Shown: piece after piece, positions 51,901 through 54,900 of the stretch
Layout of the letters: every line of letters starts with the position of its first letter
How positions within the stretch are numbered: position 1 is the first letter of the stretch
From: a virus
Lineage: Duplodnaviria > Heunggongvirae > Uroviricota > Caudoviricetes
IMG/VR virus record: IMGVR_UViG_2684623127_000007
DNA: 64,000 nucleotides
Direction: 5' to 3' (one strand)
Position numbers: made by a program

Positions 51901-54900
51901 AAAAACAAAAACCCGCCGAAGCGGGTTAAGTGCGGGTGCGTTGAGGATGCCTGACACATCAGAGGTGGCGAGGGATTTCTCCCCCGCCTGGTCTCTTACT
52001 CCTCAGGTTCGTAAGCTGTGAAGACAGCGACCTCCGTCTGGCCGGTTCGGATTCGTACCTCGCAGAGGTCTTTCCTCGTTACCAGTGCCGTCACTATGAC
52101 GATTAAACAGATGACGATCAGGGCGATTAACATCGCCTTTTGCTGCTTCATAGCCTGCTTCTCCTTGACCTTTCGGTCCGTAAGAGGCAATCTATATGTG
52201 ACGAGCATATAGGGGCCTCACTTCGATTTATAGTCGGGTGGGGCTTTTATCTATCTGCCGTTGGTGTTCATGCCCGAGGCAGATAGCCTCAAGCACCCGC
52301 AGCAATCCTACTTAACTCTGCCGTTACAGCAAACCGTTTTCGCCCGATATGGGAATTCCCATATCGGAATGAATTCAGTTCACCTGGCGAGGCTTAGCGT
52401 ACAATTTTTTCCGTTTTGTGAGCTGCCCCTACATGCCGCTGGCGCGGCATCCGGAAAAAGAATCCACGTCCTGAAGGACGAGGATGTCAAGTGCCTTTCC
52501 TGGTCCAGCCATATTTTTTGAATGCAGGCGCCGCTTCATCGGTTTGTAGCCATTCTGCAAATCGACGGGTTTCATCATTTGCATCCTGACGTACTGTAAT
52601 GTTCATATCACGCCATATCACGTAGTCTGGCGCTATTTCCACGACATCACCAATTTCTGGATTACTGGCTGCCCAGTCAGCCCAGGTTATCCAGACATCT
52701 GCTCCAGGCTGATTCTCAAGAGCCTTACGTGCAGTTCCGCTATTGGGCGCATATAAAATAATATTTTTTCGGATTGCGGCGACAGTTTCTATATTCCCTT
52801 TACGTCCGGCAATATCTTCCCAGACGCCAGTGCCTGATGTATTACTGGTACCACCACCATCATTAACAATTACGCCAATCCCAGGTCTGGTCAGGTCGTC
52901 AATACTCCGGATATTTTTAGGATTACCTTTCTTTACCAGTAAAATACTTTTTCGCAGATAAAGAGGCTGAATATCTTTTTCACTGAAGCTGTCTTTATGG
53001 TCCCGAATGATAGCCAGAGCAGATTGTTCTGATGCGCCAAACAAGATATCTGCATTTTTTTTGGCATCTTCATTCCATTTGTTCTGTGGGCCGTAATGAA
53101 CGTTCACTATAATACCTGTTTTTTCGGCATAAAGTTTGGCTGCATCAAGCAAGGCTGTATGCGGGCCACCAGGACCATACAGATTGATATCAGCATAAGC
53201 AGCAGAAGACAGGAATATTAAAAAACCTGCCATTATGTTCCTCATAAAAAACTCCTTTTATTGGTTATCATGAAATAAAGTTATAAACACTACAAATAAT
53301 ATATATTACATCCAGATAAACTTATCCGACTTTACCTCGTGCATAGCTTGTTATTTAAAGTCAACAAAATAAGGAAAATTATACGCATATTGAAGAGTAT
53401 AAACCTTACATGTTGATTACATTTTTGTAATCAACATCCTGTTTGGAATAGCCAGCCTTTAATGGATAACTATTTCTGACAATGCAATGAGTATAATCAA
53501 GTCCATCTTCCACTGAGAATTAGAGGCGGCATGCTTTTTCCGGCTCTTGCCGGATATCCGTAATTGTCCATAATCTGCAGATTTATACCTTCTGCATGAC
53601 CTGTCAGCGAAAATTTGTCCGGTGTTTCTACGGGAATGACATCAAAAGTTACACGCACTCGCGTTACCGTGTAGACCTACTTTCCTGCACTTGCAAGATC
53701 ACAGTGGTGTAACCGTAACAGGAATTTATTCTCTGGACCGGCAGTAAATCCCTGAGTGGCGTGGTTCCCATATCAATTTCCCGCCAGGCAGCCTCCATTG
53801 CCAGCGTACAGGCTGGAGCCATGACCTGCCCTTTAAATCTGGCCCGACCATCCCACCGGACGTGTTCTTCTCCCCTGAACTTAGGTACAGTCATCTCCAG
53901 TGGCACAAAAGTGTCAGCGCCATAATTTTTGACCGTTATCGCGCTACGGATATTTTGTTGACTGGTGAAAATCACCCCGCAGAATCAGGCTTATTCCCTT
54001 AACCTGGGCTTTCATCCTGACCGCCGCCTCACTACGACCAATCAGACTGCCGATGCATTTTACCTTCATTGTTAGTATCATGATTTCAGGCCTGCACCAT
54101 CCGCTCATTGCCCGGACTTCCGACAAATCCCGGCAACCATATCCCGGTGCTTGTTCAGCTCCCGCAGCGCGGCGCAGACTCGCTCCCACTTCTGGACATG
54201 ATTCTTCGCCCTACGCAGTTCGCGATTTGCCATATGCAGCGATGGCAAAATCAAATCATCTTCTCGCGTTGCAGTAAACGATGGCAGCGACTGCACAATG
54301 TCCGCCACAGTTTCTGTTTTAATATCTTCCTGTGTTGCATCTTTCTGTACCGGTAACGCAACACCGGCTGGCTGAGGAAAGGCTTTACCATCGGTTTCCG
54401 CTACCGATTCAACTTTCGGCTCTGCTGGTAAATTATCACCTGGTATGCAGTAACGAATTTTACCGTTCTGGTTTACGCGAATCAGACGACCTTTGCTGAT
54501 TGCCATTGCCAGCGTTGAAGCAACTTTGCGGGATGTTGTACCGAACAGCGTAGCCAGTTCATCCGCCGTTTGTGGTCCGCGTTGTTCAATCGTCGCGGTT
54601 AAATCGCACTCTGAGATTTTCGCTTCTGTTGCCGTGGTGGTTTCTTCTGGCGCTGGCTGTTCCTGCTGAACGTTGTTATCAGCCACACGCCAGGTGTATA
54701 CGCTTTTATCAACGAAGCCAGCCTTTTTCAGTTCCCACAGCTCGTTCAGTACTTCTTCACGACTGATATCAAGTCGCGCAGCCAGCTATACCGACGTGGC
54801 TTTTCCCATCGCTTTCAGTGCGTCAAAAACAGTCTCCATAAATTTCCTCCCGGTAAAAAATCACTTCTCAACTCAAACAAAACCAGCCGCTTTCCGGCGT

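Follow-up and report, generated by a model that had tools for sequence, protein, structure and literature searches.

An intact-looking hok/sok-type toxin–antitoxin cassette in a CP-933O-type prophage and a probable KilA-N gene relic upstream of its promoter

The minus strand of the window (the whole stretch of 64,000 nucleotides of viral DNA that was analysed) carries a type I toxin–antitoxin cassette of the hok/sok type that, judged by its sequence, looks complete, with all of its elements intact. The preferred reading, which is given a probability of about 0.88, is that a lambdoid EHEC prophage of the CP-933O/OI-57 type carries, in its nin region, a canonical hok/mok/sok cassette belonging to the HokD/HokW lineage, with a neighbouring palindrome that is a KilA-N relic outside the cassette. 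The locus is not new. It is already catalogued, in a prophage of E. coli O157, as "ckf" or hokD, the neighbour of the adhesin gene adfO/paa. The mRNA was found at an identity of at least 99% in 557 E. coli records, annotated as hokD, the name that the hok gene carries in hundreds of genomes. The exact 51-aa Hok sequence is present on at least 999 contigs under the name HokD, and the exact 70-aa product carries the name 'Killer protein encoded by prophage CP-933O'. It has been reported that adfO (z2053) is always accompanied by ckf (z2054), the 'cell-killing factor', in O-island 57 (PMC8565820). For the locus itself little is changed by the present analysis; the useful results are the corrected boundaries (~51900–52335 for the cassette), the placement of the palindrome outside hok control, and the complete leader that is kept. 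The features are collected in Table 1.

Table 1 Features of the hok locus and its surroundings, in window coordinates.
Feature	Coordinates	Strand	Basis or detail
IS629-type IS3-family element, 1310 bp, inserted in rem	50421..51730	-	HTH_Tnp_1 and rve ORFs; ALIL frameshift pseudoknot
Predicted full-length hok mRNA, ~396 nt	51903..52298	-	Rfam RF01794, fold, BLAST homology
hok intrinsic terminator	51910..51927	-	Terminator scan; stem AACCCGC/GCGGGTT, then T-run to ~51900
fbi element, 3' UTR, tac partner	51934..51946	-	Inverted repeats, folds; hardly any variation among nine hok loci
hok toxin CDS, 51 aa, HokD type (ckf/Z2054-type product)	51996..52151	-	Pfam PF01848, identity
mok-like ORF, 70 aa, in-frame N-terminal extension of hok	51996..52208	-	ORF list, mokW/hokW annotation
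Predicted sok promoter	52165..52193	+	Alignment to sokW and sokC; TTGACC (52165-70), 17 nt, CAATCT (52188-93), 6 nt, G at 52200
Predicted Sok antisense RNA, ~50 nt	52200..52250	+	Position of annotated sokW of 933W; ends inferred
ucb / anti-SD box AAGCCCC	52240..52246	-	Folds of nt 1-396 versus 1-352/345/340; Rfam consensus structure
tac element, mRNA 5' end	52287..52298	-	Pairs with nt 353-365; inverted repeats I9/I7
Predicted hok promoter	52305..52333	-	-35 TTTGCT (52333-52328), 17-nt spacer, -10 TAGGAT (52310-52305)
Probable KilA-N ORF relic, antisense to hok	52331..52380	+	Reads PFSP-DMGIPIS-E*IQ versus family consensus ELST-DMGIPIS-ELIQ
Perfect 24-bp palindrome CCGATATGGGAATTCCCATATCGG	52344..52367	.	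-46..-69 relative to hok start, upstream of hok promoter
paa/adfO moron, 'AcfC family adhesin'	52487..53245	-	Pfam SBP_bac_11 5.5e-34, annotations

The presence of a Hok/Gef toxin gene with an overlapping mok-like frame, as proposed in the initial annotation, was confirmed. The Hok ORF matched the Pfam HOK_GEF profile (PF01848) with an E-value of 1.7e-21 over profile positions 1-42 of 42. The protein is identical to K-12 HokD in 50 of 51 residues (98%), with T17I as the sole difference, and to HokW in 46 of 51 (90%). Scores with the NCBIfam Hok models were under their curated cut-offs; therefore, the naming rests on Pfam, Rfam, and identity. The mok-like ORF opens with the ATG at 52208, 7 nt behind an SD sequence GAGG, and runs in frame into hok; coupling of hok translation to mok is a prediction. 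The same layout, with one stop codon common to both frames, is found in mokW/hokW of 933W. The span of 51996-52486 given at first does contain hok and mok, but it omits the 3' UTR (51903-51995), which holds fbi and the terminator.

The hok mRNA was delineated by an RNA family match, by homology, and by folding. The RF01794 match covers 52298-52149 at model positions 1-157 of 157, ends at the hok AUG, and reaches 103.9 bits, where the gathering score is 59. This full-length match, the tac/fbi complementarity from 52301/52298, and a positionally conserved -10 hexamer together place the leader start at ~52298, and in BLAST, the homology with hokC and with the hok loci of plasmids begins at -8 to -3. 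The -10 hexamer is located 6 nt ahead of the first G of GGGTGC, the probable transcription start site, and its position is kept across unrelated contexts (as TAGAAT, TATAAT, TACAAT, or TAATAT). In a simple consensus promoter scan, both the hok and the sok promoter fell below threshold, so both rest on positional homology.

The 5' and 3' arms of the mRNA, 353 nt apart, are complementary in 9 of 9 plus 10 of 13 positions. Both the MFE and the centroid structure of the full-length mRNA close nt 1-12 with nt 353-365, with an MFE of -163.8 kcal/mol and z = -7.6. The tac/fbi helix is without covariation support because both of its sides are invariant in the loci compared. In the folds computed, ucb is predicted to pair with the mok SD in the full-length molecule and with tac in the truncated one: after 3' truncation to nt 1-352, 1-345, or 1-340, and also in the 150-nt leader, tac re-pairs with nt 53-59. 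The same tac/ucb switch on 3' truncation belongs to the R1 hok model (PMC9841398).

A search for the sok promoter and antisense RNA by comparison with characterised loci had been suggested in the initial annotation, and this comparison yielded a predicted promoter and terminator that match the positions of sokW and sokC. The 5' end of the predicted Sok would overlap the mok start and its SD, and the 3' end consists of a terminator hairpin followed by UUUUAUCU; the predicted fold has z = -4.1. The candidate promoter aligns with TTGCCT-17-TAACCT of sokW and TTGACC-17-CACTCT of sokC, and the sokW -10 has been inactivated experimentally (PMC8621323 primers). Since the -10 hexamer in the window is weak, with 2 of 6 consensus positions, the activity of this promoter is something that we infer.

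The proposed mechanism is drawn by homology to R1 hok/sok and hokW-sokW, and so are the sites where transcription would start, the expression of Sok, the processing, and the toxicity. The mRNA from ~52298 would be made in a closed and untranslatable form, in which the 5' tac is paired with the 3' fbi and ucb masks the mok SD. Slow 3' trimming would take off fbi, tac would then pair with ucb, and the mok SD would be freed. Translation of the in-frame mok extension would in turn permit the synthesis of Hok, a putative 51-aa inner-membrane toxin. An unstable Sok of ~50 nt, transcribed convergently from 52200, would bind the mok start region and block translation or trigger decay.

The cassette was compared with known systems. 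The gene pair ckf (Z2054)/adfO (Z2053) in O-island 57 of CP-933O, O157:H7 EDL933, has an identical 70-aa product and the same neighbour. No difference of substance from the EDL933 ckf was seen; the window adds the IS629-type element that interrupts rem downstream, and one listed O157:H7 genome (H31) has an exact match to the IS629/rem junction. The hokW-sokW system of the Stx2 phages 933W/Sp5, which experiments have shown to be a toxin–antitoxin system of type I (PMC8621323), has the same architecture and promoter type, ~86% identity over 51924-52340, and a Sok annotated at the equivalent place. It differs in a Sok terminator hairpin that is 21 nt longer, in the sok -10 (TAACCT versus CAATCT), in the sequence upstream of the promoter from the palindrome start onward, in its 3' terminator, and in its location on the phage genome.

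In the K-12 Qin prophage, hokD (relF, of the relBEF operon) is ~95% identical across the CDS, the 3' UTR, and the downstream rem, and the nin-region context of rem, DUF968/ydfU, and Q is shared. However, the homology ends at ~52165, 14 nt short of the hok start codon, and K-12 hokD has nothing of the mok start, Sok, tac, or the promoter beyond -14; relE and relB are there instead. Unlike Qin, the window has a complete leader and is without relBE. The prophage copy thus retains the full regulatory leader that K-12 hokD lost, and because this leader is kept, the copy and hokW–sokW would be a natural substrate for the role of hok/sok in inducible prophages. R1 hok/sok and hokC/sokC (gef) have the same set of elements, namely tac, fbi, ucb, mok, and Sok (PMC9841398). 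The hokC locus is ~78% identical to the window over nt 1-376, and the predicted sok promoter resembles that of sokC in spacing and type. The toxin sequence cluster and the genomic context of both R1 and hokC are different from those of the window, and post-segregational killing of the R1 type is not known to occur with prophage copies.

The absence of relBE, claimed at the outset, was upheld by tblastn, in which RelB and RelE gave no match over the whole window; the order in K-12 Qin is rem-hokD-relE-relB. The view that an acfC-like moron occupies the relBE position agrees with the annotation of the upstream gene as paa/adfO. This gene stands where Qin has relBE and where other prophages have the small ORF. 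The homology breakpoint is at ~52390-52395, and the moron begins ~25 nt beyond the palindrome, in an AT-rich segment with a GC content of 0.32-0.45. On the other side of hok, the rem gene is split into fragments at 51778-51734 and 50420-50214, as seen when the IS junctions were compared with intact rem. The IS629-type element is located ~170 nt past the hok terminator, and the hok mRNA is untouched.

The description of the locus as 'active-looking' is fair, because every sequence element needed for hok control is present. All known cis elements appear intact, including the leader elements whose loss would have counted against the initial annotation. The contrary reading, in which this copy has fallen silent or decayed, as the K-12 chromosomal loci have, and is passive prophage cargo that never yields Hok, is considered unlikely. 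The weak sok -10, a modest hok promoter, the T17I change, and the nearby IS629 could all be taken as signs of decay, and K-12 hokC is cut by an IS at nt 327; in the window, however, the insertion lies beyond the terminator. The summary of earlier work in bioRxiv 10.1101/2025.08.07.668861 states that the chromosomal hokA/B/C loci tested gave no post-segregational killing, whereas HokD and most Hok homologues are described in the same source as toxic on expression. [quoted passage not shown] This relative and the 557 near-identical records both argue against a silent copy.

The 22-bp palindrome CGATATGGGAATTCCCATATCG reported beside hok is real. It occurs once in the window, at 52345-52366, where the dinucleotide-shuffle expectation is 0.00 even with 3 mismatches allowed, and it extends to 24 bp. 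The claim that it is contained in a long structured leader did not hold. The leader starts at ~52298, and the palindrome, at -46 to -69, is therefore outside it and upstream of the promoter. Among 120 loci with the same promoter, the exact palindrome was found in 39 and a degenerate form in 11 (~9%), and the other 70 (~58%) had none. Arm deletions and truncations occur (loci L401, L005, and L441), and the palindrome was also found without hok (L007). The hok loci are conserved from the -10 hexamer onward, which leaves the palindrome outside the conserved module, and the palindrome-free hokW-sokW works experimentally as a toxin–antitoxin system (PMC8621323). As judged from these comparisons, the palindrome is no element of the hok cassette or its control, and is located upstream of the promoter at a mosaic junction.

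It is accordingly very unlikely that the palindrome belongs to a long structured hok leader or serves hok as a dedicated control element, whether as an operator at -57 or as a 5' hairpin of read-through from the early right operon or paa. Such a role would fit its distance of 46 bp from the predicted start, on the upstream side, and its shared orientation with O, P, and paa; it would also be transcribed within a read-through RNA and forms an independent hairpin in the 5'-extended fold. However, the hok structure is unchanged in the extended fold, and the 933W/Sp5 type is functional although its sequence parts from that of the window precisely at the edge of the palindrome. The uneven distribution of the palindrome, its damaged arms, its occurrence apart from hok, and a conservation that starts only at the -10 hexamer argue in the same direction.

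An intrinsic terminator or 3'-end stabiliser of the upstream gene (paa here, a 34-aa ORF elsewhere), by which hok would be insulated, is highly improbable. The RNA hairpin is stable (-18.3 kcal/mol, z = -5.6) and lies 8 nt past the small-ORF stop in other prophages, but a U-run is found on neither strand and the terminator scan makes no call. Moreover, a terminator-like hairpin at 52480-52467 belongs to paa itself, and the flanks of the palindrome mark a fragment of coding sequence.

The palindrome with its flanks is, by its flank scores, a relic of ~40–48 nt of a KilA-N gene on the strand opposite to hok. When the flanks were scored with a PSSM from which the palindrome was excluded, the right 14 nt gave 14.4 bits, the top of 127,904 48-mers, and the left 14 nt gave p = 1.4e-3; the opposite orientation scored negative. 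Only a ~48-nt fragment of the window matches KilA-N, and no intact KilA-N (PF04383) ORF was found among the six-frame ORFs of the window with a profile from 10 family members. A relic in the hok-sense orientation was considered and rejected, as the flanks aligned locally with five to seven KilA-N genes no better than shuffled sequences did (z <= 2.2). Free local alignment was insensitive in the other orientation too, and only the position-anchored PSSM test resolved the orientation. The pairing of hok-adjacent palindromes with a KilA-N gene in cis was also rejected: such a gene was within the flanks of 1 of 78 hok-type viral loci, and none was in the window. At locus L132, a KilA-N gene lies 350 bp from a frameshifted hok, but the promoter-upstream sequence is unrelated.

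It is possible, though doubtful, that the palindrome is a copy of an undescribed nucleic-acid element, CCG-N5-GGAATTCC-N5'-CGG, in the coding sequence of a KilA-N subfamily that ranges from Proteobacteria to Cyanobacteria, Chloroflexota, Spirochaetes, and Bacteroidota. No Rfam family matched the palindrome at the gathering threshold in the window or at E <= 1 in three KilA-N loci. A literature search for KilA-N with palindrome or hairpin returned nothing, and Bacteroidota KilA-N relatives, sought in viral contigs for an unbiased sample, were not found there. If the element is selected and is not a self-perpetuating quasi-palindrome, the hok-side relics could mark hairpin-promoted recombination junctions, where modules of the nin region (hok/sok, the paa moron) would be swapped. 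The relic could then even modulate the neighbouring hok promoter. If the KilA-N palindrome with its covarying arms holds up, it could represent either a structured cis-element of a new kind or a remarkable instance of a palindrome that maintains itself.

Two observations were made on the KilA-N genes themselves. The subfamily holds this palindrome within its coding sequence across phyla, with compensatory changes in the arms. The Bacteroidota genes read the same 20-mer in another frame.

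The 51-aa ORF at 51996-52151 matches the Pfam HOK_GEF family across the entire profile (E 1.7e-21), which confirms the Hok/Gef toxin gene of the initial annotation. In the ORF list, the hok frame stays open further upstream, as far as an ATG at 52208, and then codes for 70 aa. A mok-like frame had been described as overlapping hok; the frame is present, and because it reaches ATG 52208 in the same frame, as in mokW/hokW of phage 933W, its relation to hok is that of an in-frame N-terminal extension. The two frames lie in the same arrangement as the annotated mokW/hokW of phage 933W, and one stop codon is common to both. 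The Hok protein differs from HokD of the K-12 Qin prophage by a single residue (T17I) and is 90% identical to HokW. The identical 51-aa protein was found under the name HokD on at least 999 contigs, the identical 70-aa product bears the name 'Killer protein encoded by prophage CP-933O', and 557 E. coli records with the 396-nt mRNA at ≥99% identity are annotated hokD. The codon for Hok Tyr47 (52011-52013, minus strand) is UAC in a UACG context. TadA A-to-I editing (Tyr to Cys) has been reported at UACG in hokB and, by literature accounts, also in hokC, hokD and hokE; by its sequence, this editing site appears to be retained.

Coordinates of the features in and around the hok/mok/sok cassette
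Feature	Position	Strand	Basis or remark
hok/mok/sok cassette, complete	~51900-52335	minus	
Predicted intrinsic terminator	51927-51910		terminator scan
Predicted sok promoter	TTGACC 52165-70, 17 nt, CAATCT 52188-93, 6 nt, G 52200	plus	alignment with sokW, sokC
Predicted Sok	~52200-52250	plus	hairpin at end, then UUUUAUCU; fold z = -4.1
paa ('AcfC family adhesin Paa') or Paa/AdfO	52487-53245	minus	annotation; SBP_bac_11 domain
IS629-type IS3-family element, 1310 bp	50421-51730		splits rem (fragments 51734-51778, 50214-50420)
34-aa hydrophobic ORF of other prophages	L004 2997-3101, also L005-L008 (comparison loci)		= window ~52380-52490

The Rfam model RF01794 matched the hok strand at 52298-52149 over 157/157 model positions with 103.9 bits (gathering score 59), and the match stops at the hok AUG. 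Because of this end point, and because the sokW annotation of 933W is on the other strand, RF01794 models the hok mRNA leader and not the antisense RNA. Rfam names the family 'sok antitoxin', yet its match is hok-sense and spans the mRNA between its 5' end and the hok AUG. The match would place the hok mRNA 5' end at about 52298. Complementarity is perfect between the first 9-nt region (52301-52293) and 51939-51931, 353 nt apart, and is 77% in a second arm formed by 52292-52280 and 51953-51941. The fold of 52298 to 51903 (396 nt) had an MFE of -163.8 kcal/mol (z = -7.6 against shuffles), with nt 1-12 predicted to pair with nt 353-365 in both the MFE and the centroid structures. The closure of the 5' tac element by the 3' fbi element has been described for R1 hok mRNA (PMC9841398), and the pairing of nt 1-12 with nt 353-365 is, in the predicted fold, this tac/fbi closure. 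In the predicted full-length fold, a GCCCC box (nt 55-59) pairs with the mok SD (GAGG, nt 79-82). When the last 44-56 nt were removed, nt 1-8 switched to nt 53-59 in the predicted folds; the new helix would be the tac/ucb stem found in the translatable form, which is also helix one in the Rfam consensus.

The -10 hexamer of hok lies 6 nt 5' of GGGTGC in all contexts compared, as TAGGAT in the window, TAGAAT in other prophages, TATAAT in hokC, TACAAT in a plasmid and TAATAT in strain A34. The sequences 5' of it are unrelated among these contexts; when the BLAST query was extended 42 nt upstream, the plasmid and hokC matches started at -8 to -3. Comparison with characterised loci, the check proposed by the initial annotation, placed a predicted sok promoter and Sok at the position equivalent to sokW and sokC. 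The promoter aligns with TTGCCT-17-TAACCT of sokW and also with TTGACC-17-CACTCT of sokC; in a simple consensus promoter scan, neither the hok nor the sok promoter passed. Destruction of the sokW -10 yields a 'pro-less' mutant in which HokW toxicity is unmasked, and hokW-sokW is reported to assist lysis after induction (PMC8621323). The second hok leader hairpin (52215-52245), identical with the terminator hairpin of Sok, is 21 nt shorter than the hokW type and differs in sequence, whereas its flanks are near-identical between the window and 933W; in length it is close to hokC and to the consensus of the Rfam model. Segments resembling hokW, hokC and hokD make the cassette a mosaic. By homology, it should work like R1 hok/sok and hokW-sokW; it may stabilise the prophage, act in defence against phage or, like hokW-sokW, help lysis after induction. 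Since hok points the same way as O, P and paa, read-through could affect hok/sok: we infer that transcription reading through from the early-right operon at induction could both lengthen hok RNAs and disturb the sok promoter, which is convergent.

In OI-57, adfO (z2053) never occurs without ckf (z2054), a cell-killing factor associated with phage (PMC8565820). The window locus is this adfO/ckf pair; it is thus an already known locus, ckf/hokD of OI-57, with an intact-looking hok/sok. The gene paa/adfO has its own terminator-like hairpin and a GC dip to 0.32-0.45. The order in K-12 Qin is Q-ydfU-hyp-rem-hokD-relE-relB. Homology with Qin extends from rem through hokD with its 3' UTR (95%) and ends at ~52165, 14 nt before the hok ATG; the window copy keeps the leader that K-12 hokD is without. 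RelB and RelE had no match anywhere in the window and paa/adfO lies upstream of hok, as had been noted before. The cassette is not interrupted by the IS629-type element, which lies ~170 nt past the hok terminator. This element contains an ALIL frameshift pseudoknot (51279-51395), and its target duplication is not clean, because the right junction is GT against GA in the intact sequence. Downstream of the Q region, 45599-46210 holds the sRNA genes AgvB (plus) and STnc100 (minus) and two tRNA genes, a set typical of EHEC lambdoid prophages beyond the Q region.

The palindrome CGATATGGGAATTCCCATATCG (52345-52366) occurs once in the window, is not expected by chance and extends to 24 bp. It lies at -46 to -69 from the predicted hok start, outside the conserved cassette. 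Homology to hokW/933W stops at 52340; the 933W type has ...AAACCGTTTTTA(T/C)CC in common with the window and diverges exactly at the palindrome edge. When 120 loci on viral contigs that share this 30-nt promoter and 5' end were compared, the palindrome was exact in 39, degenerate in 11 and absent from 70. E. coli genomes contained 23,307 hok-like places against at most 2,097 similar to the 166-nt upstream segment. At 9 loci one arm of the palindrome lacked 1 nt; further variants had a truncated arm or an altered centre, and one comparison locus (L007) carried the palindrome without hok. In the predicted fold of a 5'-extended transcript, it formed an independent hairpin and the hok fold was unchanged. 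It is no canonical terminator, because no U-run follows. These observations separate the palindrome from hok control. Its earlier assignment to the hok leader was wrong, while hok, mok, the lack of relBE and the AcfC-like moron stand.

The 20-mer core GATATGGGAATTCCCATATC had exact matches at 82 loci from very diverse phyla in a scan of one genome per species, where chance would give ~0.5 over 596 Gb by our own estimate, and also occurred on >120 viral contigs (these observations cover loci L009-L090, L091-L210 and L211-L375). At 76 of the 82 loci it lies inside ORFs of one family, the KilA-N domain proteins (E 1e-19 to 5e-27), and encodes DMGIPIS. Outside E. coli prophages, the majority of copies are within KilA-N domain genes. 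Among relatives gathered via protein patterns, blind to the DNA palindrome, synonymous variation inside the motif was limited to two central positions. KilA-N subfamilies differ in the arms with complementarity kept (GATATG/CATATC, GATATC/GATATC, GAAACC/GGTTTC, GAAGCG/CGCTTC, GAGGTC/GACCTC); with GATATC/GATATC, Met to Ile is compensated by a synonymous CCC to CCG change in Pro. Across 46 distinct sequences, 91% of cells pair, against 30-50% in slid controls; double changes occur at 7/10 arm pairs (34 cells), and the covariation score was reached by 0/500 shuffles. Six Bacteroidota KilA-N genes (L009, L016, L035, L058, L065, L086) carry the same 20-mer at the same domain place, within a palindrome of 30-32 bp, in the frame YGNSHI, which argues that DNA or RNA rather than the peptide is conserved. 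From these sequences, the palindrome looks like a nucleic-acid-level constraint, or like a sequence that maintains itself through templated quasi-palindrome correction. Neither an Rfam family nor a paper on a KilA-N intragenic palindrome with covarying arms was found.

For KilA-N genes, a PSSM was built from the 14+14 nt to either side of the palindrome. On the window plus strand it scored 21.3 bits, the top of 127,904 48-mers in the window (right side alone 14.4 bits, p ≤ 8e-6; left p = 1.4e-3), and the other orientation scored negative. Translated, the plus strand gives PFSP-DMGIPIS-E*IQ where the consensus has ELST-DMGIPIS-ELIQ. Because these flanks match and the window has no KilA-N ORF, the best explanation of the palindrome is that a KilA-N gene running antisense to hok left a relic of ~40-48 nt at a mosaic junction. 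Some 25-30 nt further along starts the paa moron or, in other prophages, a 34-aa ORF, which paa/adfO replaces in the window. In those lambdoid prophages, the hydrophobic ORF (MSDDISLAMEGALAVIAVVGVYCLVVFLMDRLGN) has a strong SD and stops 8 nt before the palindrome.

On prophage contig L132 (3763-5184), a palindrome-bearing KilA-N gene is divergent from a hok locus and ~350 bp upstream of it; the hok ORF is frameshifted (41 aa), and the sequence upstream of its promoter is unrelated to that of the window. Other palindrome contexts were seen at L030/L084 (Alcaligenaceae MAG), L075 (Tolypothrix), L059 and L018; and at L033/L044 and L052 (Patescibacteria). Some of these have clusters of palindromes with a common core GGGAATTCCC and different arms (GAAAC.../...GTTTC, GTTGC.../...GCAAC), and others have longer extended palindromes outside KilA-N genes.
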